Assembly (NCBI GenBank): GCA_006218045.1
Contig: VBWB01000004.1
Span: forward strand, 139,770 to 203,769
Origin: Stygiobacter sp.
GTDB taxonomy: Bacteria; Pseudomonadota; Alphaproteobacteria; Rhodospirillales; Magnetospirillaceae
Direction of reading: 5' to 3'
Length of the DNA stretch: 64,000 bases
Position numbers and translations under genes: made by a program. The notes under the pieces are model-generated. The model made no database searches. It had not been told where the DNA came from and saw only the letters and a program-made list of their open reading frames with translations. Shown one piece after another: positions 41,203-54,116 of this stretch; position 1 is the stretch's first letter, and every line of letters starts with the position of its first letter.

Positions 41203-41904
41203 ATGAGCGAGCAAGGCCCGGCACAACCGGTGAAAGTGACCAAGGCGATTCCGTTTCATATCGGCTTGCTGGCGCGGTTGCGCGCCTATTTCTTCGCCGG
41301 CATCCTGGTGACGGCGCCCATTTCCATCACCTTCTACATCGCCTGGCAGTTCATCAAGTTCATGGACAATCAGGTGTCGCCGCTGATGCCGCCGGAACTG
41401 AACCCGCAATATTGGGGTTTTCCCGGTTTCGGCCTGATCGCCGTAATGGTGGGCCTGACCCTGATCGGCATGGTCACCGCCGGCTTCGTCGGTCGTATCC
41501 TGGTCAAGATCTACGACATCATCTTGCAGCGCATGCCGGTGCTGTCGGGCATCTATTCGGCGGTGAAGCAGATTTTCGAGACCATGCTGGCGCAAAAGGC
41601 CAATGCCTTCCGCGAAGTGGCGTTGATCGAATATCCCAGGGCGGGCATCTGGACCATGGCCTTCATCACCGGCACCACCGCCGGTGAAATCGGCGAGGTT
41701 TTCGCCGATGACGACATGGTCAATGTCTTCGTTCCCACCACCCCCAACCCGACCTCGGGTTTTCTGCTGTTCCTGCCGCGCCGCGACGTCCGCGTGTTGG
41801 ACATGAATGTGGAGGAGGGGCTGAAGATGGTCATTTCCACCGGCATCCTGGTGCCGCCGCACCGCAAGCCGCTGGAAGAGCAGCCGGAGCTCAGCCTGAC
41901 CTGA
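41203..41904 (+). CDS. DUF502 membrane protein
   Basis: YFFAGILV..P, IEYPR, VFVPTTPNPTSGFL. Confidence 0.88.
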   Translation: MSEQGPAQPVKVTKAIPFHIGLLARLRAYFFAGILVTAPISITFYIAWQFIKFMDNQVSPLMPPELNPQYWGFPGFGLIAVMVGLTLIGMVTAGFVGRILVKIYDIILQRMPVLSGIYSAVKQIFETMLAQKANAFREVALIEYPRAGIWTMAFITGTTAGEIGEVFADDDMVNVFVPTTPNPTSGFLLFLPRRDVRVLDMNVEEGLKMVISTGILVPPHRKPLEEQPELSLT

Positions 41905-43972
41905 GGGTGTGAACGGCGGCGTCACGCTCGAACAGGTACAACAGCACCCGCAGGGCCTGACCGCGCTCCGAAATCAAGTCCGGGTCGCGGGCCAGGATCA
42001 GGGCCGCGTCGTCGCGGGCGGCGGCCAGCAACTCGCCGTGGATGGACAAATCGGCCAGTTTGAATTCCGGCAGGCCGCTTTGCCGTGTGCCCAAAATCTC
42101 GCCGCCGCCGCGCAGACGCAAATCCTCTTCGGCGATGACGAAGCCGTCCTCGGTGGCGCGCATGATTTCGAGGCGCGCCTTGGCGTTTTCCGATAACGGC
42201 GCGCCATACAGCAACAGACAGCTGGAAGCGCCGCTGCCGCGCCCGACCCGACCGCGCAACTGGTGCAACTGGGCCAGGCCGAAGCGTTCGGCGTGTTCGA
42301 TGACCATGATGGTGGCCTCGGGGACGTTGACACCCACCTCGATCACCGTGGTCGCCACCAATACCGACAACCGGCCGGCGGCGAAATCGGCCATCACCTT
42401 GTCCTTGGCCGGCCCCTTCATCTTGCCGTGCACCAGCCCGACACCATCGCCGAACACTTGCGACAGATGGCGGTGGCGTTCCTCGGCCGCCGCCAGATCG
42501 GATGTTTCCGAATCCTCCACCAGCGGGCAGACCCAGTAGACGCGGGCGCCGGCCATGACGGCGCGACCGATGCCGTCCACCACCTCGTCCATCCGTGACA
42601 GCGGCAGGGCGCGGGTGGAAATCGGCTGCCGCCCCGGCGGCTTTTCATCCAGCCGTGAGGCATCCATGTCGCCGTAACTGGTCAGCAACAGCGTGCGCGG
42701 GATGGGGGTGGCGGTCATCACCAGCATGTCCACCGCCTGACCCTTGGAGGCCAGTTCCAGCCGCTGATGCACACCGAAACGGTGCTGTTCGTCGATGACG
42801 GCGAAGGCGAGGTCGGCATAGGCCACGTCTTCCTGAAACAGAGCGTGGGTGCCGATGATGATATGGGTATGGCCCGCCGCCAGATCGGCCAGGATGGCAT
42901 CGCGGCCCTTGCCCTTGTCGCGCCCGGTCAGCAGGGCCACCCGCAAGCCGGCGCTTTGGACCAAGGGCGCGATGGTCTCCATGTGCTGACGGGCCAGAAT
43001 CTCGGTCGGGGCCATCAGCGCCGCCTGGGCGCCCGCTTCCACCGCGTTCAACATGGCCAGCAGGGCCACCACCGTCTTGCCGCTGCCCACATCGCCTTGC
43101 AGCAATCGCAGCATGCGCAAGGGTTCGGCCATGTCGGCATCGATCTCGGCCAGGGACCGGGTTTGCGCGGAGGTCAGGGTAAAGGGCAGGGCCGCCAGCA
43201 CCTGCGGGCGCAGATGGGTGGAAACCGGGGTGGGCCGGCCCTTCAGTTTGCGCATATGGGCGCGCACCATCATCAGCGCCAATTGATTGGCCAGCAATTC
43301 GTCGAAGGCCAACCGGCGGCGGGCGGGGCAATCCTCGATCACCGCCTGTTCCGATTGCGGGCGGTGCAGGCTGTCCAGCGCTTGGTGCCACGATGGCCAG
43401 GCATTGCGGGCGAACCAGGCTTCATCCTGCCACTCGGGCATCCGGGGCGCCTGATCCACCGCCGCCCGGATGGTCTTGGCCACCATGCGCGCGGTCAACC
43501 CGCCGGTCAGCGGATAGACCGGCTCGATGGTCATCACCTGTTCGCGCTCGGCCACGGGCACGATGTGGTCGGGGTGGGTGATCTGGATTTCGTCGTTGAA
43601 ATGCTCGATCACGCCGCTGATCACCCGCCATTCGCCTTCCGGCAATTGCCGGCGCAGCCAATCCTCGCGCCCATGGAAGAACACCAGATGGGCGAAGCCG
43701 GTCTCGTCGGAACAGCGCACCCGGTAGGGCCGCCTGGGGCTGTTCGAGGGGAAATGGGATTCCACCCGCACCGTGATGGTGGCGACCTTGCCCGCCGGCG
43801 CCTCGGCCAGTTTGGGGGCGAAGCGGCGGTCGATCACCCCCGACGGCAGGTGCCACAGCAGATCGACCACGCGCCCGCCGGCGAGGCGCTCATAAAACGG
43901 CGCCAGCTTGGGGCCGATGCCGGCAAGCGTGGTGATCGGCGCGAACAATGGGTTCAGCAGGCTGGGGCGCAT
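41891..43972 (-). CDS. recG: ATP-dependent DNA helicase RecG
   Basis: QGDVGSGKT, DEQHRFGV, TATPIPR, QLHQLRGRVGRG. Confidence 0.96.
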   Translation of the reverse strand: MRPSLLNPLFAPITTLAGIGPKLAPFYERLAGGRVVDLLWHLPSGVIDRRFAPKLAEAPAGKVATITVRVESHFPSNSPRRPYRVRCSDETGFAHLVFFHGREDWLRRQLPEGEWRVISGVIEHFNDEIQITHPDHIVPVAEREQVMTIEPVYPLTGGLTARMVAKTIRAAVDQAPRMPEWQDEAWFARNAWPSWHQALDSLHRPQSEQAVIEDCPARRRLAFDELLANQLALMMVRAHMRKLKGRPTPVSTHLRPQVLAALPFTLTSAQTRSLAEIDADMAEPLRMLRLLQGDVGSGKTVVALLAMLNAVEAGAQAALMAPTEILARQHMETIAPLVQSAGLRVALLTGRDKGKGRDAILADLAAGHTHIIIGTHALFQEDVAYADLAFAVIDEQHRFGVHQRLELASKGQAVDMLVMTATPIPRTLLLTSYGDMDASRLDEKPPGRQPISTRALPLSRMDEVVDGIGRAVMAGARVYWVCPLVEDSETSDLAAAEERHRHLSQVFGDGVGLVHGKMKGPAKDKVMADFAAGRLSVLVATTVIEVGVNVPEATIMVIEHAERFGLAQLHQLRGRVGRGSGASSCLLLYGAPLSENAKARLEIMRATEDGFVIAEEDLRLRGGGEILGTRQSGLPEFKLADLSIHGELLAAARDDAALILARDPDLISERGQALRVLLYLFERDAAVHTLRSG

Positions 43973-44081
43973 GGGGATTTTTGTGGGCTTGATGCTGACA
44001 GACGGGTGGGAACGCTCTATATCCTAGAGCCGCTTGGCCGCCAAGGCCAGGGATCAGGTCCATCCGAGCGTACAGGCGATC

Positions 44082-44348
44082 ATGGAAGAAGCACGATTGA
44101 AACGGTTGAGGTTTCGCGCCCACCACATGGGCTCGAACGAAAACGACATCCTGTTTGGCGGCTTCGCCGAAAAATACCTGCATGGCCTGAGCGCCGAACA
44201 GGTCGAGCGCTTCGAGAGCTTGATCGCCGAAACCGACACCGATTTGTTCAACTGGGTCACCGGCAAGGTCGACGTGCCCGCCCATCTGGACCACGACGTC
44301 ATGCGGATGATTAAGAATTTTGTTCAAAATGAAGCTGCAATCCGTTGA
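44082..44348 (+). CDS. sdhE: Succinate dehydrogenase flavinylation factor SdhE/SDHAF2
   Basis: KRLRFRAHHMGSNENDI (variant of RG.xE), DTDLFNWVTG. Conserved recG-sdhE-mfd synteny. Confidence 0.85.
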   Translation: MEEARLKRLRFRAHHMGSNENDILFGGFAEKYLHGLSAEQVERFESLIAETDTDLFNWVTGKVDVPAHLDHDVMRMIKNFVQNEAAIR

Positions 44349-47300
44349 TTAAAATACAGAATATCTCTGACGCTCCGGGCCGGCAGAATCTTGCAGGCAC
44401 TCCCGATGGTGCCGATGCCCTGACGGTGGCCGAACTGGCCCGGGCCTGGAGCGGTCGGGATGTTCTGTACGTGGCCCGCGATGATGGCCGCATGGCCCGC
44501 ATGGCCGAGGCCCTGGCCTTTTTCGCCCCAGACGTCGAGGTGGTGGATATCCCCGCCTGGGATTGCGTGCCCTATGACCGGGTGTCGCCCCATGTGGATC
44601 TGGTGGCGCGCCGCGTCGATGGCTTGTGCACGCTGGCCCGGGGACCGGGCCGGGGGGCGCGGGTGGTGTTGACCTCGGTCGCCGCCCTGGTACAGCGGGT
44701 GCCGCCACGCCAGGTGCTGGCCTCGTCCAGCCTGTCGGCCAAGGTAGGCGGGCGGCTGGATATCGATGGTATCGTCGCCTATCTCAACCGCAACGGCTAT
44801 GGCCGCACCGATACGGTGATGGAACCGGGTGAATATGCGGTGCGCGGCGGCATCCTTGATCTGTTTCCGCCCGGCACGCCGGAACCGGTACGGCTGGATT
44901 TCTTCGGCGACGAGCTGGAAAGCATCCGCAGCTTCGACCCCATGAGCCAGCGCACCAGCGGCAAATTGCAAAGCTTTTCCCTGGTTCCGGTCAGCGAGGT
45001 GACGCTGGACGATGCCGCCATCGCCCGTTTCCGCGGCACCTATCGCGAGATGTTCGGCGTGGTCAGCGGCCCCGACCCGCTGTACGAGGCCATTTCCCAG
45101 GGCATCAAGTTCAACGGCATGGAACATTGGCTGCCCTTGTTCCATGACGGCATGGATACCTTGTTCGCCTATGTCCCCGACGCTTTGGCGGTGCTCGACC
45201 ATCAGGTGGAAGAGGCGCGCGACGCCCGCCATGCCCTGGTGCTGGAATATTACGACGCCCGGCGCACCATCACCGGTGCCGGTCTGGCCGAATCGGGCAT
45301 GGTCTATCACCCGCTGCCGCCCCATCGGCTTTATGTGGAAAAGGACGAATGGGACCGCCTGCTGGCGACCCGGCCTTGCGTCGCCCTGTCGCCCTTCGGC
45401 CCGGCCAGCGAAAACGGCGCCGATGCCGGTGGCAGGCCAGGGCGCGACTTCTCCGACATCCGTGCCCGCCCCGACGGAAATGTCTATGACGCCTTGCGTG
45501 AGCATGTGGGAGCGGAAAAAAGCCGCCGTTCGGTGCTGGCCGCCTGGAGCGCCGGTTCGCGCGATCGCCTGTCGCATGTGCTGGCCGATCACGGCCTGAA
45601 GCCGGTTCTGGTCGACAGCTGGGCCGAGGCGCTGGCCGCCCCGGCCAAATCCCTGCCCATGGTGGTGCTGGCTCTGGATCACGGCTTCGTCACCGACGAC
45701 GTGGCGCTGATCACCGAACAGGATCTGCTGGGCGACCGTCTGGCCCGTCCGGCCAAGAAAAAGCGCAAGGGTTCGCAATTCCTGGCCGAGGCCTCGGCCC
45801 TGGCCGAAGGCGATCTTGTCGTCCATCTGGAACACGGCATCGGCCGCTATGATGGGCTGGTGACGCTTCAGGTGGCGGGCGCGCCGCATGATTGCCTGCG
45901 GGTGATCTATGACGGCGGCGACAAGCTGTTCGTGCCGGTGGAAAATATCGAGGTTCTGACCCGTTACGGCTCGGAACAGGCGGGCGCCCAGCTCGACCGC
46001 CTGGGCGGGGTGGCGTGGCAGTCGCGCAAGGCCAAGCTGAAGAAACGCATTCGCGACATGGCCGACCAGCTGATCGCCATCGCCGCCCAGCGTCAGTTGC
46101 GCAAATCGGAATCCCTGACCCCGCCGGAAGGGCTGTGGGACGAATTCTGCGCCCGCTTCCCCTATGCCGAGACCGAGGATCAGGCCCGCGCCATCGACGA
46201 TACGGTGGCCGATCTGGGATCGGGCCGGCCCATGGATCGTCTGGTCTGCGGCGATGTCGGTTTCGGCAAGACCGAGGTGGCCATGCGCGCCGCCTTCGTC
46301 GCCGCCATGAGCGGCATGCAGGTGGCGGTGGTGGTGCCGACCACCTTGCTGGCGCGCCAGCATTACCGCAATTTCTCTGATCGTTTCCACGGCCTGCCGC
46401 TGAAAGTCGAGCAATTATCGCGGCTGGTGACGGCCAAGCGGGCGGGCGAGGTCAAGGCCGGCCTGGCCGACGGCTCGGTCGATATCGTTGTCGGCACCCA
46501 TGCGGTGCTGGCCAAATCCATCAATTTCAAGCGCCTGGGCCTGTTGATCATCGACGAGGAACAGCATTTCGGCGTCGGCCACAAGGAACGGCTGAAACAG
46601 CTGAAATCCGACGTCCACGTGCTGACCCTGACCGCCACCCCGATTCCGCGCACGCTGCAACTGGCGCTGACCGGGGTCAAGGAAATGAGCGTCATCGCCA
46701 CCCCGCCGGTGGACCGTCTGGTGGTGCGCACCTTCGTGCTGCCCTTCGATCCGGTGGTCTTGCGCGAAGCCATCCTGCGCGAACGCTATCGCGGCGGTCA
46801 GGTGTTTTACGTCTGCCCGCGTCTGGCCGATATCGACCGCGTCGCCGACCGTCTGGCCAAGCTGGTACCCGAAGTCAAATGCGCCATCGCCCATGGCCGG
46901 CTGACGCCCACCGAGCTGGAAGAGGTGATGACCGCTTTCGGTGACAAGCAATACGACGTGCTGCTGTCCACCAACATCATCGAATCCGGCCTGGACATGC
47001 CAAGCGTCAATACCCTGATCATCCATCGCGCCGACATGTTCGGCCTGGGTCAGCTGTACCAGTTGCGCGGTCGCGTCGGTCGCGGCAAGACCCGCGGCTA
47101 TGCCTATTTCACCCTGCCCACCGACAAGGTGTTGTCGAAGCCGGCGGAAAAGCGGCTGCATGTGATGCAGACGCTGGATTCCTTAGGCGCCGGTTTCCAA
47201 CTGGCCAGCCACGATCTGGACATCCGGGGCGCCGGCAATCTGCTGGGCGAGGAACAATCCGGCCATATCCGCGAAGTGGGCATTGAGCTTTACCAGCAAT

Positions 47301-47812
47301 TGATCGAGGAAGCGGTGGCCGCCGCCAAGGGCGGCGAGGGCGAGATGGCGGTGGAGGAATGGTCGCCGCAGATCACCCTGGGCACGCCGGTGCTGATCCC
47401 CGATACCTATGTGGCCGATCTGTCGGTACGGTTATCGCTTTATCGCCGCATCGCCACCTTGGCCGACCGCGAGGAAATCGATCAACTGGCGGCGGAATTG
47501 GTCGACCGCTTCGGCAAGATGCCGCCCGAGGTGGAAAACCTGCTGGAAGTGGTGGCGGTCAAGACCTTGTGCAAACAGGCCGGGGTGGAAAAGCTGGATG
47601 CCGGCCCCAAGGGCGCGGTGGTCACCTTCCGTGGCAACGTCTTCGCCAATCCCATCGGTCTGGTGCAGTACATCGCCCAGCAGGCCGGTGCCGCCAAGCT
47701 GCGCCCCGACCACAAGCTGGTCTTCGTCCGCGCCTGGGACGAGCCGGCCAAGCGGGTCAAGCTGGCGCAAAAGCTGATCGCCAAGCTGGTGGAAATCGCC
47801 AGGGCGGGGTGA
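44345..47812 (+). CDS. mfd: Transcription-repair coupling factor
   Basis: PAWDCVPYD.VSP, CarD-like HLEHGIGRY, GDVGFGKTEVA, DEEQHFGV, TRCF C-terminus. TTG start. Confidence 0.96.
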   Translation: MIKIQNISDAPGRQNLAGTPDGADALTVAELARAWSGRDVLYVARDDGRMARMAEALAFFAPDVEVVDIPAWDCVPYDRVSPHVDLVARRVDGLCTLARGPGRGARVVLTSVAALVQRVPPRQVLASSSLSAKVGGRLDIDGIVAYLNRNGYGRTDTVMEPGEYAVRGGILDLFPPGTPEPVRLDFFGDELESIRSFDPMSQRTSGKLQSFSLVPVSEVTLDDAAIARFRGTYREMFGVVSGPDPLYEAISQGIKFNGMEHWLPLFHDGMDTLFAYVPDALAVLDHQVEEARDARHALVLEYYDARRTITGAGLAESGMVYHPLPPHRLYVEKDEWDRLLATRPCVALSPFGPASENGADAGGRPGRDFSDIRARPDGNVYDALREHVGAEKSRRSVLAAWSAGSRDRLSHVLADHGLKPVLVDSWAEALAAPAKSLPMVVLALDHGFVTDDVALITEQDLLGDRLARPAKKKRKGSQFLAEASALAEGDLVVHLEHGIGRYDGLVTLQVAGAPHDCLRVIYDGGDKLFVPVENIEVLTRYGSEQAGAQLDRLGGVAWQSRKAKLKKRIRDMADQLIAIAAQRQLRKSESLTPPEGLWDEFCARFPYAETEDQARAIDDTVADLGSGRPMDRLVCGDVGFGKTEVAMRAAFVAAMSGMQVAVVVPTTLLARQHYRNFSDRFHGLPLKVEQLSRLVTAKRAGEVKAGLADGSVDIVVGTHAVLAKSINFKRLGLLIIDEEQHFGVGHKERLKQLKSDVHVLTLTATPIPRTLQLALTGVKEMSVIATPPVDRLVVRTFVLPFDPVVLREAILRERYRGGQVFYVCPRLADIDRVADRLAKLVPEVKCAIAHGRLTPTELEEVMTAFGDKQYDVLLSTNIIESGLDMPSVNTLIIHRADMFGLGQLYQLRGRVGRGKTRGYAYFTLPTDKVLSKPAEKRLHVMQTLDSLGAGFQLASHDLDIRGAGNLLGEEQSGHIREVGIELYQQLIEEAVAAAKGGEGEMAVEEWSPQITLGTPVLIPDTYVADLSVRLSLYRRIATLADREEIDQLAAELVDRFGKMPPEVENLLEVVAVKTLCKQAGVEKLDAGPKGAVVTFRGNVFANPIGLVQYIAQQAGAAKLRPDHKLVFVRAWDEPAKRVKLAQKLIAKLVEIARAG

Positions 47813-47815
47813 GCC

Positions 47816-48463
47816 TCAGGACAGCGCCAATTCCGTTTCCGATTGTCGGGCGATGTCGATCAGGCGTAGCAGGATGTCGGGTTCCTGCGCCCCGGCCAGG
47901 GCATAGGCGCCGTCCAGGATCAGGCAGGGCACGCCGTTGACGCCCTGGCGATGGGCGCGGGCGTTGTCGTTCAACACGGCGCTGACGTCGGCTTCCGAGC
48001 GCAGGTACTCTTCCAGTTCGATGCCGGGCAGGTCCAGCCGTTCGCCCAGGGAGACCAGGGTGGGCACCAGACCGATATCCAGACCTTCGACGAAATAAGC
48101 GTGATAGAGGGCCTCCACCACTTCCGGCTGGCGACCGAAGCCGGCGGCGAAGCGGATCATGCGGTGCGAGTTCAAGGTATTGGGGGCGCGGGTGATGCGA
48201 TCGAAGGCGAAGGCGATGCCTTCGGCGGCGCCGGCGGCGGCGACGGCGGCATGGATGCGGCTGACCCGCGCCGGCCCGCCGAATTTGCGGTCGAGATAGG
48301 CGCGGCGATCAATGCCCTCGGGTGGGATATCCGGATTCAGCAGAAACGGGCGCCAGACGATTTCCGTGCGGGTGCCGGGGCGCTGGGCCAAGGCGCGCTC
48401 GAACCGGCGCTTGCCCACATAGCACCACGGACACACCGTATCGAAGATGAATTCGATCTTCAC
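47816..48463 (-). CDS. DsbA/FrnE-family oxidoreductase
   Basis: DTVCPWCYVGKRR, GVNGVP, GAQ. Confidence 0.88.
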   Translation of the reverse strand: MKIEFIFDTVCPWCYVGKRRFERALAQRPGTRTEIVWRPFLLNPDIPPEGIDRRAYLDRKFGGPARVSRIHAAVAAAGAAEGIAFAFDRITRAPNTLNSHRMIRFAAGFGRQPEVVEALYHAYFVEGLDIGLVPTLVSLGERLDLPGIELEEYLRSEADVSAVLNDNARAHRQGVNGVPCLILDGAYALAGAQEPDILLRLIDIARQSETELALS

Positions 48464-48475
48464 GCCGCTTCGCCT

Positions 48476-49786
48476 TTAATCCAGATTTTGCCGGGCGCGC
48501 GCGATCACGCTATCCAAGCTGTCACCGGCACCGACGACGGTGCAGCCCACCTGCACCCATACCTTGATCGGCTGATAGACCTCGCGCACGGCGAAATCCG
48601 TATAGGCCAGCACGCCGGCGATGCGGTGCATGACCACTTCAGCCTCGTGCACCGGGGTGTCGGGCAGCACCACGCAGAATTCGTTGGATTTGAACGATGC
48701 GGTCAGATCCTCGGCCCGGAGCAGGCCGGTAATCCACTGGCCCACCTGCTGGGTCAGGTGCAGGCCGGCATCATCGCCGAATTGCTGGCGCACCACGTCG
48801 ATATTGGGAGCGGCGAAGAACACCACGGCCAAGTGACGGTTCTGGCTTTCGGCCGTCTCGATGCGACTGGCCAGATAGGCTTCCAGGAAGGCGCGGCCAT
48901 AGGCGCCGGTGACCGGATCGCGGGTGGCGTCGGCCAGGCTGTCGTTGAGCGCGCCGCGGATGCTCCAGCGCAATTGCTGGCGCCGCACCAGGGTAAGGAC
49001 CGCGGCCTTCAGGATCAGCGGTTCAACCGGACGGCCCAGCACCCGGGTGGCGCCACGGCGATAGGCGTCGGCGGCGTCGGTGCCCAGGCCGGCCAGCAGC
49101 ACCATGGGCAGGTTGAACAGACGCGGGTTGTTGCGCACTTGCGAGCAGAAGCTCAGCAATCCCTCGGGTTCCTGGGCGAAGGACAGCACGGCGGCGTCGA
49201 AATTGCGGCGCACCAGCAATTCCTCGGCGTCGTACAGGGTCGAGGCCTGCACGATCTCGCCGCAGCCCGCCAAAATCGCCGCCACCGGGCCGGCATCGTC
49301 GCCGATGATCAGGATGGCCGGCGGCGTATCCTCGGCATTGGTCATGCGGGCGCGGGCGGTGACACCGAAGCGCCGGGCCATGGCGGCGCGGTGGCGCAGT
49401 TCGGCATGCATGGTCGCCAGTCGCACCAGCGGGCGCATGCGGGCGAACAATTCAGCGTCGTCGCAGCCGATGTTGAGCACGTCGTCCAGGCCGTTATCCA
49501 GGCAGCGCCCGCATTGTTCGGCCGCCAGACGGTCCACCGCCAGCACCACCGGAATGTCGGCGGTGTCGGGCTCGCCCTTGAAGCGGCAGCCCAGATCGAC
49601 CGCGTCGCCTTCATCGGGGGTGCCGATCAGGATCAGGTCCGGGTGTTCGGTCCGCGCCGTCTCCATGCCCTCAAGGGCGGTGAGAGCGATGCTGGAATGA
49701 TAGCCGCCACGGGCCAAACGCTCCCTCAAGGCTGCCGAGCGGTCGGCATTGGCGTCGATGATCAGCACGTTGGCAAGGCGAATCAT
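48476..49786 (-). CDS. PleD-like REC-REC-GGDEF protein with degenerate active site (PopA-like)
   Basis: Collinear with PleD (ELFARMR.LVR, RDPVTG, LRAED). GGEEF is replaced by KSNEF and REC1 lacks the phospho-Asp. Confidence 0.82.
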   Translation of the reverse strand: MIRLANVLIIDANADRSAALRERLARGGYHSSIALTALEGMETARTEHPDLILIGTPDEGDAVDLGCRFKGEPDTADIPVVLAVDRLAAEQCGRCLDNGLDDVLNIGCDDAELFARMRPLVRLATMHAELRHRAAMARRFGVTARARMTNAEDTPPAILIIGDDAGPVAAILAGCGEIVQASTLYDAEELLVRRNFDAAVLSFAQEPEGLLSFCSQVRNNPRLFNLPMVLLAGLGTDAADAYRRGATRVLGRPVEPLILKAAVLTLVRRQQLRWSIRGALNDSLADATRDPVTGAYGRAFLEAYLASRIETAESQNRHLAVVFFAAPNIDVVRQQFGDDAGLHLTQQVGQWITGLLRAEDLTASFKSNEFCVVLPDTPVHEAEVVMHRIAGVLAYTDFAVREVYQPIKVWVQVGCTVVGAGDSLDSVIARARQNLD

Positions 49787-49899
49787 TGTTTCCCCGATCT
49801 TTTAAGGCTTGCTGGGCATTACCAGAATAATACGGAACAGCCCTCACCATAAGGGGGCATGTGTATTATTAATCGGTGTATGGTCGGAGGGTTGCATTG

Positions 49900-49914
49900 A
49901 CTGAACCGTTCAGT
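49900..49914. promoter_or_regulatory. Palindromic operator overlapping the -35 of the RND operon
   Basis: ACTGAAC-C-GTTCAGT overlapping TTGACT (49897-49902). Confidence 0.6.
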
Positions 49915-49951
49915 TCAGTTATTCGGGACTGAAGTGAGGCTCTGGTAGCGG

Positions 49952-51049
49952 ATGACCAAAATGCGGAAGAAGTTGGGCATTGTGATCCTTGGTTGTGTCG
50001 CCGCCGCCGCCGGAGGCTGGTGGTATTTCGGCAGGAACGCGGCACCGCCGCCATCGGCGGGCGGGGCCATGGGGCCGGTCGCGGTCGAGGTGGCCAAGGT
50101 CACGGTGGGACCGATGGCGCGCGAGATCACCTCGGTCGGCAGCCTGCGCTCGGACGAGGCGGTGGTCATCCGCCCGGAGATCGCCGGGCGGGTCAAGGCC
50201 ATCGGCTTCGAGGAAGGCAGCCGGGTGACCAAAGGCCAGGTGCTGCTGCGGCTGGACGATTCGTCGCTGTCCGCCGATCTGGTGCAGGCCCAGGCCAATC
50301 TGGCCTTGTCGCGGGCCAATTCCGACCGCGCCGTGCGGCTGGCCGGGCAAGGCGCCGGGACCGAGCGCGCCCGCGACGAGGCCGAGGCCAAGTTACGCGT
50401 CGATCAGGCCAAGGTGGAACAGGCCCGCGTCCAATTGGACAAGACGGTGCTGGTGGCGCCCTTCGCCGGTACGGTGGGCTTGCGCACGATCAGCATCGGC
50501 GCCTATGTGCAGCCGGGCCAGGACATCGTCAATCTGGAAGCCACCGACCCGATCAAGGTGGATTTCCGTGTCCCGGAAATCTTTTCGGCGGTGATGCGCA
50601 CCGGCATCGAGCTGTCGATGACCACCGATTCCCATCCCGGGCGCCAGTTCATCGGCACCGTCTATGCCATCGACCCGGCGGTGGACCAGAACGGTCGGGC
50701 CATCGTCGTCCGCGCCCGTGTCGCCAATGCCGACGGTGCCTTGCGCCCCGGTCAGTTCGTCCGCCTGATGTTGAAGGTGGACGAAGTGGCCGAGGCCCTG
50801 ACCATCCCGGAAGAGGCGCTGGTGCCGCGCGGCCAGCAGATCATCGTCTTTCGCGTCGTCGACGGCAAGGCCCAGCCCGGCCCGGTCAAGACCGGACGTC
50901 GCGCCAGGGGGCTGGTGGAAGTCACCGAAGGCCTGAAAGCGGACGACACGGTGGTCACCGCCGGTCAGATGAAGCTGCGCCCCGGCGTGCCGGTGGCGGC
51001 GCCCGCACCAGCACCCGCACCAGCACCAGCACCCAAGAGCGGAGGCTGA
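49952..51049 (+). CDS. RND efflux periplasmic adaptor subunit
   Basis: N-terminal anchor, lipoyl-like PEIAGRV, APFAGTVG, ALRPGQF, Ala-Pro tail. Confidence 0.92.
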   Translation: MTKMRKKLGIVILGCVAAAAGGWWYFGRNAAPPPSAGGAMGPVAVEVAKVTVGPMAREITSVGSLRSDEAVVIRPEIAGRVKAIGFEEGSRVTKGQVLLRLDDSSLSADLVQAQANLALSRANSDRAVRLAGQGAGTERARDEAEAKLRVDQAKVEQARVQLDKTVLVAPFAGTVGLRTISIGAYVQPGQDIVNLEATDPIKVDFRVPEIFSAVMRTGIELSMTTDSHPGRQFIGTVYAIDPAVDQNGRAIVVRARVANADGALRPGQFVRLMLKVDEVAEALTIPEEALVPRGQQIIVFRVVDGKAQPGPVKTGRRARGLVEVTEGLKADDTVVTAGQMKLRPGVPVAAPAPAPAPAPAPKSGG

Positions 51050-51050
51050 C

Positions 51051-54000
51051 ATGCGTCTGCCCGAATTGTGCATCCGCCGTCCCGTCCTGGCGACGGTGAT
51101 GAGCCTGATGATCGTGCTGGTCGGTCTGGTCGCCTATGACCGCCTGCCGGTGCGCGAATATCCCAATATCGACGAACCGGTGGTCACCGTCGAAACCACC
51201 TATAAGGGCGCCTCGGCGGAGATCGTCGAGACCCAGGTCAGCAAGGTGTTGGAGGATTCCCTGGCCGGCATCGAGGGCATCGACGTGCTGTCGTCGCTGT
51301 CGCGTTCGGAAAGCAGCCAGATCACCATCCGCTTCAAGGTCACCCGCGACGCCGATTCGGCCGCCTCCGACGTGCGCGACCGCGTCGCCCGCGTGCGCGG
51401 CAAACTGCCCGAGGATGTGGAAGAACCGGTGATCGCCAAGGTCGAGGCCGACGCCCAGCCGATCATCTATCTGGCGTTCTCGTCCGACCGCCACGACGCC
51501 CTGTTCGTCTCCGATTATGCCTGGCGTTTCGTCCGTACCCGCTTGCAGAATCTGACCGGCGTCGCCGATATCCGCATTTTCGGAGAGCGCAAATACGCCA
51601 TGCGCATCTGGCTCGACCGGGTGCGCATGGCCGCCTACGGCATGACGCCGCAGGATGTGGAAAACGCGCTCAAGCGCCAGAACCTGGAAGTGCCGGCGGG
51701 CCGTATCGAATCGGCGGAACGCGAATTCACCGTGCTTTCGGAAACCGATCTGAAGACGCCGGAGCAGTTCAGCGCCATCATCCTGGCCGAAAGCAAGGGC
51801 TACCCCATCCGCCTGGGCGATATCGCCAAGGTCGAGATCGGGCCGCAGGACGAACGCCGGATCACCCGCTTCAACGGCTCGTCGGCGGTGGCCCTGGGGG
51901 TGGTCAAGCAATCGGTGGCCAATCCGCTCGACGTCTCCAGCGCCGTGCGCGGCGTATTGCCGGAAATCCGCGACAACCTGCCGGAGGGCATGAAGGTGGA
52001 CGTGGGCTACGACAGCTCGGTGTTCATCGAACGCTCCATCGAGGCGGTGTTTAGAACCATCGTCGAAGCGGTCATCCTGGTGGTGCTGGTCATCTTCTTC
52101 TTCCTGCGCACGGTGCGCGCCACCCTGATCCCGCTGGTCACCATTCCGGTGTCGCTGATCGGCGCCTTCGCCCTGATGTACGTCTTGGGCTTCACCATCA
52201 ACACCCTGACCCTGCTGTCCATGGTGCTGGCCATCGGTCTGGTGGTCGACGACGCCATCGTCGTCCTGGAAAACATCTTCCGCCACATCGAAGAGGGGGT
52301 GGAGCCGATCAAGGCGGCCATGGACGGCTCGCGCGAGATCGCTTTCGCCGTCATCGCCATGACCATCACCCTGGCCGCCGTCTATGTGCCCTTGGCCTTC
52401 ATGACCGGGCGCACCGGCAAATTGTTCGTGGAATTCGCCCTGACCCTGGCGGCGGCGGTGATGGTGTCGGGCTTCGCCGCCCTGACCTTGTCGCCGATGA
52501 TGTGCTCGCGCCTGTTGCGGCACGAGACCAAGCATTCCCGCATCTACCTGCTGATCGAGAACTTCCTGGAGGGCATGACCGCCGGCTATCGCCGGGTGCT
52601 GGGCCGGTCGTTGGCCAAGCGCGCCGGCATCGTCATCCTGGGCGGCGCGGTGGCGGTATCGGCGGTGTTCCTGTTCGGCTCGCTCAAATCCGAGCTGACG
52701 CCGACCGAGGATCGCGGCACCGTGGTGGTCATCGGCATCGGCCCAGAGGGGGCGACCATCGGCAATATCGACAGATATTCCCGCATGGTCGAACGCTTCA
52801 TCGCCGACGTGCCGGTGGTGGAACGCTATTTCGTCATCACCGGCGTGCCCGTGGTCAACCAGATGCTGGCTTTCGTCCGCATCAAGGATTGGAGCGAACG
52901 CAGCACCTCGCAGATGAAAGTGGCCAGCGGCCTGATGCCCAAGCTGATGAGCGTGCCCGGTATGCTGGCCTTCGCCGTCAACCCGCCGTCCTTGGGCGAA
53001 AAAGCATCGTCCAAGCCGTTGCAGGTGGTCATCCAGACCGCCGGCACCTATGAGGATCTGCAAAAGGTCAACGACGCCTTCATGGCCGAGGCCATGAAGA
53101 TTCCCGGCCTGATCAGCCTGGATTCCGATCTCAAGCTCAACAAGCCGCAAATCAAGGTGGCCATGGACCGCGACCGCATCTCGGATATCGGCTCGTCGGT
53201 GGAGGTGGTCGGACGCACCTTGGAAACCATGCTGGGCGGGCGTCAGGTCACCCGCTTCAAGCGCGAAGGCGAGCAATACGACGTCATCGTCCAGGTGGCC
53301 GATGTCGACCGCCGCAATCCCAACGACATGACCAACATCTATGTGCGCGGCGACAAGGGCGACATGGTGCAATTGTCCAACCTGCTCAGCCTGCATGAAG
53401 GCGTCGCCGCCCGCGAACTCAACCACTTCAACCAGTTGCGCGCAGCCACCATCAGCGCCAATCTGGCGCCGGGCTATACCATGGGTCAGGCGGTGAACGA
53501 GTTGGAAGCCATCGCCGCCCGCGTGCTGCCGGGCAATTCGCAATTGGATTACAACGGTCCGTCGCGCGAGTTCAAAACGTCGAGCTCGGCCATGTGGGTG
53601 ACCTTCGCCCTGGCGCTTTTGTTCATCTATCTGGTGCTGGCGGCGCAGTTCGAAAGCTTCGTCGATCCGTTCGTCATCATGCTGACCGTGCCGTTGTCCA
53701 TGGCCGGCGCCCTGGCGGCGCTCAAGCTGACCGGCGGCACCATCAACGTCTACAGCCAGATCGGTCTGGTGACGCTGATCGGTCTGATCACCAAGCACGG
53801 CATTTTGATCGTCGAGTTTTCCAACCAGTTGCGCGACCAGGGCAAACCGATGGTGGAAGCGGTGGTGGAAGCCGCGGCCTTGCGCCTGCGCCCCATCCTG
53901 ATGACCACCGGGGCCATGGTGCTGGGTGCCATCCCCCTGGCCTTGGCCCATGGCGCCGGCGCCGAAAGCCGCCAGCAGATCGGCTGGGTCATCGTCGGCG

Positions 54001-54116
54001 GCATCACGGTCGGCACCTTTTTCACCCTGTTCGTGGTGCCGGTGGCCTATACCCTGCTGGCCAAGAAGACCCGGCATGGCCAAGCGGTGGCCTCACAGGG
54101 TGAGGAACAGGAATGA
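51051..54116 (+). CDS. RND efflux permease (AcrB/MdtB family)
   Basis: IRRPVLA, GLVVDDAIVVLEN, RLRPILMTT, 12-TM architecture. Confidence 0.95.
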   Translation: MRLPELCIRRPVLATVMSLMIVLVGLVAYDRLPVREYPNIDEPVVTVETTYKGASAEIVETQVSKVLEDSLAGIEGIDVLSSLSRSESSQITIRFKVTRDADSAASDVRDRVARVRGKLPEDVEEPVIAKVEADAQPIIYLAFSSDRHDALFVSDYAWRFVRTRLQNLTGVADIRIFGERKYAMRIWLDRVRMAAYGMTPQDVENALKRQNLEVPAGRIESAEREFTVLSETDLKTPEQFSAIILAESKGYPIRLGDIAKVEIGPQDERRITRFNGSSAVALGVVKQSVANPLDVSSAVRGVLPEIRDNLPEGMKVDVGYDSSVFIERSIEAVFRTIVEAVILVVLVIFFFLRTVRATLIPLVTIPVSLIGAFALMYVLGFTINTLTLLSMVLAIGLVVDDAIVVLENIFRHIEEGVEPIKAAMDGSREIAFAVIAMTITLAAVYVPLAFMTGRTGKLFVEFALTLAAAVMVSGFAALTLSPMMCSRLLRHETKHSRIYLLIENFLEGMTAGYRRVLGRSLAKRAGIVILGGAVAVSAVFLFGSLKSELTPTEDRGTVVVIGIGPEGATIGNIDRYSRMVERFIADVPVVERYFVITGVPVVNQMLAFVRIKDWSERSTSQMKVASGLMPKLMSVPGMLAFAVNPPSLGEKASSKPLQVVIQTAGTYEDLQKVNDAFMAEAMKIPGLISLDSDLKLNKPQIKVAMDRDRISDIGSSVEVVGRTLETMLGGRQVTRFKREGEQYDVIVQVADVDRRNPNDMTNIYVRGDKGDMVQLSNLLSLHEGVAARELNHFNQLRAATISANLAPGYTMGQAVNELEAIAARVLPGNSQLDYNGPSREFKTSSSAMWVTFALALLFIYLVLAAQFESFVDPFVIMLTVPLSMAGALAALKLTGGTINVYSQIGLVTLIGLITKHGILIVEFSNQLRDQGKPMVEAVVEAAALRLRPILMTTGAMVLGAIPLALAHGAGAESRQQIGWVIVGGITVGTFFTLFVVPVAYTLLAKKTRHGQAVASQGEEQE

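Follow-up and report, generated by a model that had tools for sequence, protein, structure and literature searches.

A probable distant orthologue of PopA, predicted to be a c-di-GMP receptor, in a Magnetospirillum-type genome without canonical PleD

PopA is a textbook case of an enzyme paralogue turned second-messenger receptor; in Caulobacter it localises to the cell pole in a manner dependent on cyclic di-GMP (c-di-GMP) and on PodJ/PopZ, and to our knowledge it has been studied almost only in that organism. PelD of Pseudomonas aeruginosa and SgmT of Myxococcus xanthus likewise sense c-di-GMP through the RxxD inhibitory site (I-site) of a dead GGDEF domain, yet they do so in unrelated contexts (a membrane/GAF protein and a histidine kinase, respectively) with other outputs, and the only common ancestry is that of the GGDEF fold. 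Herein we describe a gene at positions 48476-49786 (- strand) of a 64,000-nucleotide stretch of the genome of Stygiobacter sp. (assembly GCA_006218045.1, contig VBWB01000004.1, positions 139,770 to 203,769; hereafter the window), the product of which very probably belongs to the PopA lineage. The gene is also likely to be orthologous to Caulobacter popA (CC_1842 / CCNA_01918 in C. crescentus) in both position and phylogeny, and to encode a c-di-GMP receptor and not an enzyme. In Caulobacter PopA, the I-site binds c-di-GMP at about 2 uM, the active site (A-site) is degenerate, and the protein is a ClpXP adaptor that acts with RcdA and CpdR, delivering CtrA to ClpXP (PMC12564702, PMC10212136, PMC7200025). 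More generally, degenerate GGDEF domains with an intact RxxD motif constitute an established class of receptors, tabulated with examples such as PelD and SgmT (PMC12564702).

The REC-REC-GGDEF architecture of PopA, in a chain of about 430-445 aa, was recovered for the gene product by Pfam, NCBIfam and phmmer, as well as by AlphaFold2 and Foldseek. Against the PDB, phmmer aligned residues 5-433 with residues 3-436 of C. crescentus PleD, the phosphorylation-activated diguanylate cyclase, at 116 bits; the NCBIfam PleD equivalog model (NF007135) spanned residues 5-435, with a score of 182.5 bits vs. a cut-off of 474. Pfam GGDEF matched at 67.9 bits (model positions 1-151 of 161) and Pfam Response_reg at only 21.7 bits, below its cut-off of 30.2. 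The ATG start is preceded by GGGGA, and the start-codon call is right given that Met1 and the N-terminal M.RLANVL are conserved in 119/124 homologues of the family alignment, to which all homologue counts over 124 sequences below refer. The closest homologue with a name is from M. sulfuroxidans (81% identity), and the host is a Magnetospirillum-type genome. The features of the gene, given with residue numbers of its product, are as follows.

48476-49786 (-): popA-lineage gene (pseudo-REC / REC-like adaptor / degenerate GGDEF), 436 aa; open reading frame (ORF) with ATG start, collinear with PleD
49427-49774 (-): REC1 pseudo-receiver, residues ~5-120; phosphorylation residues lost, from the PleD alignment
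48962-49324 (-): REC2 adaptor-like domain, residues ~155-275; carries the signature R218-N-N-P-R-L-F-N-L-P227
48479-48928 (-): degenerate GGDEF domain, residues 287-436, ending before the C-terminal Y..AK..GRN helix; Pfam GGDEF
48797-48814 (-): lost metal-binding stretch A325-A-P-N-I-D330, replacing D327-I-D-F-F-K; PleD alignment
48707-48718 (-): primary I-site R357-A-E359-D360 (RxxD, here RxED), aligned with PleD R359-A-I-D362
48677-48691 (-): dead A-site K366-S-N-E-F370, replacing GGEEF; PleD alignment, columns of 2.3-2.9 bits entropy
48623-48625 (-): R388 in MHRIAG, equivalent to PleD R390, the third primary I-site residue; PleD alignment, invariant in 124/124

An earlier note on this DNA had described a REC-REC-GGDEF protein collinear with PleD in a Rhodospirillales-like bacterium, with RYGGEEF read as SFKSNEF, the metal-binding DIDxFK as AAPNID, the REC1 acceptor stretch IILLD as LILIG, and the RxxD motif kept as RAED at canonical spacing; every one of these readings is borne out, with exact coordinates where such were given. 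SFKSNEF corresponds to residues 364-370 (48677-48697) and lies opposite PleD RYGGEEF, while AAPNID (residues 325-330) lies opposite DIDFFK, such that A325 stands at the PleD metal ligand D327. Just downstream, the guanine-binding residues are lost (R333 for PleD N335 and L342 for PleD D344), and the C-terminal Y..AK..GRN helix of PleD is missing. Since the metal ligands (D327, E370), the GG turn, N335/D344 and the C-terminal phosphate-binding helix are all gone, the gene product is predicted to be unable to make c-di-GMP. In REC1, LILIG (residues 51-55) places G55 (nt 49622-49624) at the phospho-acceptor D53, and the rest of the phosphorylation pocket is replaced as well (A12 for D10, A83 for T83, I106 for K105); with all four residues substituted, the protein would also be unable to be phosphorylated. 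Across the family, position 55 is G in 59, D in 29 and N in 8 of the 124 homologues. The A-site is therefore degenerate at the sequence level, as in the PopA lineage (KSNEF, A325, R333, L342, loss of the C-terminal helix), and the hallmarks of PleD, i.e., a phosphorylatable REC1, GG[D/E]EF together with D327, a score reaching the NF007135 cut-off and a divK-pleD context, are all lacking. The names currently attached to these genes in databases, "diguanylate cyclase" and "cell cycle response regulator", are misleading, and the former is almost certainly wrong. Binding of guanosine tetra-/pentaphosphate ((p)ppGpp), as seen in new PleD structures, was considered and rejected, as the ligand there occupies the active site, which is destroyed here.

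In contrast to the drifting A-site, the primary I-site is intact (R357, E359, D360 and R388). RAED occupies residues 357-360 at the canonical 5-residue spacing to the former A-site. Only nine columns of the 124-sequence alignment are invariant (R122, E129, R133, R218, P227, R357, E359, D360 and R388) and four of these are I-site residues, whereas the five A-site columns vary freely, with entropies of 2.3-2.9 bits. This combination, in which RxED and R388 stay fixed while the A-site columns vary, argues that the motif pattern is not due to chance; the same contrast recurs in the best 120 close homologues and in 150 representatives at the 50% clustering level. Among full-length 50%-level representatives RxED is kept, the exceptions being three frameshifted or truncated sequences, one that groups with PleD, and two that read RSRD and RGQD. 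Two signatures further set the lineage apart from PleD. The PopA-lineage I-site reads RxED with an invariant E359, vs. RAID or RGVD in PleD, and REC2 carries RxNxRL[FY]xxP, which reads RNNPRLFNLP here, RRNTRLYHTP in Caulobacterales PopA and RSEERTRQLP in PleD; within it, N220 is conserved at 94%, and R218 and P227 do not vary at all. With PleD itself the gene product has in common the primary I-site (PleD R359, D362, R390) and the stem residues R121, E128, R132, R218 and P227 (PleD numbering).

To place the gene among its relatives, Caulobacterales genomes were reached through their PleD loci, with C. crescentus PleD as bait, and the named genomes were then searched. Therein, the best match of the query is PleD (104-119 bits), followed by a second protein (75-93 bits) for which the alignment begins near residue 99; we identified this second match as PopA as it is the sole other full-length PleD-like protein in those genomes. 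Further grounds are that it carries RVED and a degenerate A-site (GPEVF or ATEVF, vs. KSNEF here), and that its acceptor Asp, I-site Arg and A-site Glu are spaced as are D55, R357 and E368, the landmark residues reported for PopA by Duerig et al. 2009; G55, R357 and N368 of the gene product fall at the same numbers. The spacing of these landmarks is consistent with the Caulobacter sp. sequence. In a FastTree phylogeny of 218 sequences, 77 PleD orthologues all fell in one clade, and PopA grouped with the family of the query. A 92-row IQ-TREE analysis (LG+C20+F+G4 with posterior mean site frequencies, PMSF) was then built in which the query, 50 family members and 11 Caulobacterales PopA represented the PopA lineage. 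In this maximum-likelihood (ML) tree, the 62 PopA-lineage rows lie on one side of a branch supported at 100/100 (ultrafast bootstrap, UFBoot / SH-like approximate likelihood ratio test, SH-aLRT), and the 28 PleD rows are supported at 99/95, in agreement with the quick tree. Two further PleD-collinear proteins of the same genome (C62:171330-172610 (+) and C16:29729-31411 (+), ~27% identity, both with GGEEF and the acceptor Asp, the C16 protein with an extra N-terminal Hpt-like region) are orthologous to neither PleD nor PopA, and were used as outgroups.

The earlier note had left open the choice between a distant PopA and a PleD repurposed independently, and had proposed a phylogeny with both; that phylogeny places the gene with Caulobacterales PopA, apart from PleD. 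This position in the tree, the shared neighbourhood detailed below, and the RxED and RxNxRL[FY]xxP signatures together decide for a distant PopA orthologue. Best-hit logic would have labelled the gene a degenerate PleD (116 bits for PleD vs. 79 for PopA against the query), a label overruled by tree and synteny; raw similarity misleads here owing to the long branch that leads to Caulobacterales PopA. The designation of the gene as a PleD paralogue, also from the earlier note, thus stands in the evolutionary sense, but there is no PleD in its own genome of which it could be the paralogue. The note's remaining positional claim, of a DsbA/FrnE gene 12 bp away, is confirmed (stop codon at 48476-48478, GTG at 48463, Pfam DSBA at 121 bits). 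As to the possibility it raised of patchy, pseudogene-like conservation lacking RxxD, RxED is instead invariant in 124/124 homologues, with dN/dS values of 0.11-0.15.

Chromosomal context also separates the two lineages. In genomes of Caulobacter, Phenylobacterium, Brevundimonas, Maricaulis, Hyphomonadaceae and Terricaulis, popA lies in the order gene-dsbA-mfd-sdhE-recG, in which dsbA may or may not be present; 11 Caulobacterales popA loci share gene-(dsbA)-mfd-sdhE-recG. The same neighbourhood surrounds a 33%-identical lineage member on a 400-kb contig of a Rhodospirillales metagenome-assembled genome, and recurs in 16/20 loci from an even class-wide sample. Conversely, divK lies immediately upstream in 71/80 PleD loci and in no PopA-lineage locus. 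Around the gene in the window, the following features were annotated.

47816-48463 (-): gene for a DsbA/FrnE-like thioredoxin-fold protein, cytoplasmic, 215 aa, GTG start, CPWC motif, no signal peptide; Pfam PF01323 DSBA, 121 bits
48464-48475 (-): 12-bp spacer between the stop codon of the popA-lineage gene and the dsbA-like start, a probable operon junction; from sequence
44345-47812 (+): mfd (transcription-repair coupling factor), convergent, synteny marker; 53-71% identical Mfd proteins are encoded next to popA-lineage genes
44034-44348 (+): sdhE/Sdh5-like small gene, synteny marker; homologue at locus L117 matches PF03937, order conserved
41891-43972 (-): recG, synteny marker; conserved order
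49787-49951 (strand not assigned): divergent intergenic region of 165 bp, shared with a resistance-nodulation-division (RND) efflux operon in which the membrane fusion protein (MFP) gene begins at 49952; from sequence

The Mfd neighbour at locus L117 was confirmed by its Pfam domains. Immediately downstream of popA-lineage genes, in Caulobacterales as in other orders, lie genes for DsbA-like proteins 40-54% identical to the one here, and a same-strand gene-dsbA pair, with spacing that ranges from an overlap of 4 bp to a gap of 206 bp, occurs in 13/20 class-wide loci and in 2/11 Caulobacterales popA loci examined. Loci with the dsbA-like gene directly downstream on the same strand range from Caulobacterales to Rhodospirillales (among L113, L115, L117, L163 and L188-L207); in some Caulobacterales loci (L114, L116, L158, L159, L164), dsbA is gone from between popA and mfd. 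In the window the gene ends in TAA (48476-48478), and no terminator-like site lies between it and the dsbA-like gene. Co-transcription of the two genes is plausible, and the idea is strengthened by the class-wide conservation of the pair; we know of no earlier discussion of this apparently conserved operon for PopA. Upstream, a promoter scan of the 165-bp region found no sigma-70-like site, and no CtrA box (TTAA-N7-TTAA) was found near the upstream region of the gene. The divergent RND efflux pair (MFP and pump, window 49952-54116 (+)), of which the MFP has an (AP)n-rich C-terminus, is not conserved as a neighbour at other lineage loci.

The distribution of the lineage indicates considerable age. 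Of 300 alphaproteobacterial genomes sampled evenly, about 26 encode a clear member (>160 bits), spread over many GTDB families, and many of these also carry a second match at the level of PleD. Genomes G034 and G078 demonstrably encode both; the PopA lineage and PleD are hence ancient paralogues and not products of a Caulobacterales-specific duplication, which is to say that the duplication is older than the split between Rhodospirillales and Caulobacterales. Some members (P0155, P0179, P0183, P0194, P0252, and that at locus L117, 8001-9338) retain D327, N335 and GGEEF along with RxED, and GGEEF-intact members sit in the same dsbA-mfd-recG context. Judged by sequence, these members may still be active as cyclases and may reflect the condition ancestral to the lineage. 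Other members have degenerated in differing ways, with nearly all keeping RxED and the R388 equivalent. A few carry an in-frame stop or a frameshift-like scrambled C-terminus (G148:C3:8686-10002; P0235, P0240, P0264), from which the gene appears to be decaying in some lineages. Within the genus, 15 other genomes encode an intact, full-length, single-copy gene; in two more it is represented by fragments at the ends of contigs, and in another by no more than a 32%-identical match. Canonical PleD is absent from all 19 genomes of the genus, the present one included, and the divK of this genome (C31:86592-86984 (+), 75-80% identical to the DivK encoded upstream of PleD elsewhere) is followed by a convergent UspA-like ORF. 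With no PleD in 19 genomes and a divK with no pleD behind it, the genus has lost PleD and kept the PopA-lineage gene. Our literature search found no account of PopA orthologues outside Caulobacterales, though Ozaki et al. 2014 may hold one.

That the gene is real and under constraint is apparent from several angles. A word-indexed search scored 8,000 candidates, of which 315 were homologues at E <= 1e-10; the best 120 of these range from 94% down to 48% identity and are almost all 430-440 aa in length, with Magnetospirillum, Paramagnetospirillum, Phaeospirillum and Ca. Terasakiella as the named sources among them. When 1.84 billion cluster representatives were searched exhaustively with HMMER, 193 matched at E <= 1e-30. 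The ratio of nonsynonymous to synonymous substitution (dN/dS, omega) is 0.114 against a 95%-identical orthologue (dS 0.23) and 0.148 against an 81%-identical one (dS 0.82); comparisons below about 75% identity were discarded as dS is saturated there. Purifying selection is strong and falls most heavily on the dead GGDEF domain (omega 0.05-0.10), with REC1 the least constrained (omega 0.19-0.25). AlphaFold2, given the family alignment, predicts two (beta-alpha)5 domains and a GGDEF fold with high confidence (predicted local distance difference test score, pLDDT, 96; predicted template-modelling score, pTM, 0.92), and the ten best Foldseek matches in the PDB are all PleD chains, aligned over the full length (E 3e-30, TM about 0.6; PleD structures 1W25, 2V0N, 2WB4 and 9G85/9G86).

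Taken with the retained I-site, these features make the gene product a likely non-catalytic c-di-GMP receptor, as read from its sequence. In the proposed mechanism, c-di-GMP made by some of the other GGDEF proteins of the genome, which has >40 GGDEF-domain matches, would bind R357, D360 and R388 on the dead GGDEF domain, and binding would shift the packing of that domain on the REC1-REC2 stem, thereby changing the partners or the location of the protein. Signal flow would thus be opposite to that in PleD, with GGDEF serving as input and the receiver domains as output, in line with what has been reported for PopA. More speculatively, the protein could recruit substrates such as CtrA to ClpXP in adaptor-like fashion via an RcdA homologue, which in Magnetospirillum would act on motility and not on essential cell-cycle control; alternatively or additionally, its output could involve the probably co-transcribed cytoplasmic DsbA/FrnE-like oxidoreductase. 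The genome does encode candidate parts of the adaptor pathway. CtrA is found at C60:57021-57725 (+) (NF045991, 411.6 bits). This CtrA ends in ...GQAHAV, differing from the Ala-Ala C-terminus that is the ClpXP degron of Caulobacter CtrA, which bears on its status as a ClpXP substrate. The RcdA homologue (PF07323/DUF1465; C37:10307-10744 (-)) has, 41 bp downstream, a 138-aa response regulator (C37:9849-10265 (-)) that consists of a single domain and has its acceptor pocket intact; the latter may be a CpdR-like partner, although no specific NCBIfam name attaches to it.

Several observations weigh against this picture. The AU (approximately unbiased) test, in which forcing PopA together with PleD costs 32.9 log-likelihood (lnL) units, is marginal (p = 0.045), and long branches are involved. 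The secondary I-site arginines of PleD, R148 and R178, are not conserved in the gene product. The RcdA homologue scores 104.6 bits on Pfam, above the cut-off there, but only 77 vs. a cut-off of 170 on the curated NCBIfam RcdA model, and since RcdA also occurs in Azospirillum, which is without this lineage, its presence is permissive only. REC1 of Caulobacter PopA reportedly binds RcdA (Ozaki et al. 2014). Here, REC1 is hardly alignable with that of Caulobacterales PopA (BLAST alignments begin near residue 99), and the acceptor Asp kept in the latter is Gly. Moreover, Hyphomonas has a popA homologue, yet its CtrA is not regulated by proteolysis (PMC7200025), such that the adaptor role is not universal even within Caulobacterales. 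With REC1 so poorly conserved and Hyphomonas keeping popA without CtrA proteolysis, a role for the gene product as a ClpXP/CtrA adaptor, which would follow by analogy with Caulobacter, is possible but doubtful.

Other explanations of the locus must be set against a PopA-lineage receptor. One would have the gene as the PleD orthologue of this genome, degenerated at its original locus once its kinase input was lost, and so outside the PopA lineage, with convergent likeness to PopA. The higher raw similarity to PleD (116 vs. 79 bits), the marginal AU result and the lack of canonical PleD in the 19 genus genomes, which could suggest replacement, speak for such a history; it is nonetheless very improbable given that the ML tree splits the 62-row PopA lineage from PleD at 100/100, that the gene does not lie behind divK as do 71/80 PleD loci, that it instead shares the dsbA-mfd-sdhE-recG neighbourhood of popA, and that a lineage member and PleD coexist in many genomes (e.g., G034, G078, G341, G184, G244). 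Even less credible, to the point of near-dismissal, are the readings of the gene as a pseudogene or of its product as a diguanylate cyclase with residual or unorthodox activity. Degeneration of all catalytic motifs could, alone, resemble decay, but 15 relatives from the genus and hundreds of metagenomic homologues have intact ORFs of full length, omega is 0.11-0.15 and the fold is predicted confidently; as for catalysis, the alignment indicates simultaneous loss of the two metal ligands, the two glycines, the two guanine-binding residues and the C-terminal helix that binds phosphate.

The remaining alternatives accept the lineage and differ on what the protein does. A structural scaffold or adaptor that has lost c-di-GMP binding or has a different nucleotide as its ligand, with RxED and R388 kept for folding or domain contacts, would fit the absence of the secondary I-site arginines of PleD as well as the invariance of R122, E129, R133, R218 and P227, which are common to PleD and look structural. 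We consider this improbable, as precisely those three residues with which PleD holds c-di-GMP, and with which PopA binds it, are invariant over >270 sequences while the A-site drifts, the spacing to the former A-site is canonical, GGDEF is the most constrained part, and a dead GGDEF with an intact RxxD is an established receptor class (PMC12564702). Somewhat better placed, if still unlikely, is a PopA-lineage receptor with a conserved output other than ClpXP/CtrA proteolysis, which would instead work together with the probably co-transcribed cytoplasmic DsbA/FrnE-like thiol-disulfide oxidoreductase, linking c-di-GMP to redox/disulfide status, with the proteolysis adaptor a Caulobacter-specific addition. 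In its favour are the same-strand pair in 13/20 class-wide loci plus L113, L115, L117 and L163, the 12-bp gap here with no terminator, the lack of conservation across the lineage of REC1 (RcdA-binding in Caulobacter), and the presence of popA without CtrA proteolysis in Hyphomonas (PMC7200025). Nevertheless, the pair is not obligatory (dsbA is lost in L114, L116, L158, L159 and L164), the recG-sdhE-mfd block is conserved too, such that adjacency may equal ancestral inertia, and no link from c-di-GMP to FrnE-type proteins is known.

Relative to its closest described systems, then, the gene has with PopA a common REC-REC-GGDEF architecture, degenerate A-site, RxED, R390-equivalent Arg, ML clade, neighbourhood and REC2 signature, and differs from it in sequence (only 27-30% identity, REC1 barely alignable) and in setting, since Caulobacter has a PleD that feeds PopA and the present host has none. 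PleD is its best structural match and full-length collinear, but retains the acceptor pocket, GGEEF, metal and guanine ligands and R148/R178, all absent in the gene product, is divK-adjacent and forms a separate clade. By every property of the PopA lineage that can be read from sequence (architecture, I-site, dead A-site, clade, context), the gene product matches PopA. Bolder, and as a whole rather unlikely in our estimation, is a joint reading in which the PopA lineage is an ancient class-wide PleD paralogue with an ancestral and widespread role other than CtrA proteolysis and a DsbA/FrnE-like protein as its most persistent partner; some members would still be cyclase-like and others would have repeatedly degenerated to pure I-site receptors, the protein in PleD-less Magnetospirillum would couple the c-di-GMP pool to a redox/thiol or motility output via the DsbA/FrnE-like partner, and the Caulobacter adaptor would be a late specialisation.

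Ultimately, the PopA lineage is far older and wider than Caulobacterales, the order in which it has been studied; it keeps a fixed chromosomal address beside dsbA-mfd-recG, and can survive in a genus from which PleD has disappeared entirely. As the lineage holds both cyclase-competent-looking and dead members, it offers a natural series for the change from cyclase to receptor. The present host is a spirillum, and in Magnetospirillum CtrA reportedly controls motility and is not essential (Greene et al. 2012). The question raised, in magnetospirilla that are genetically tractable and in which CtrA governs motility, is what job PopA performs without PleD and without an essential CtrA.

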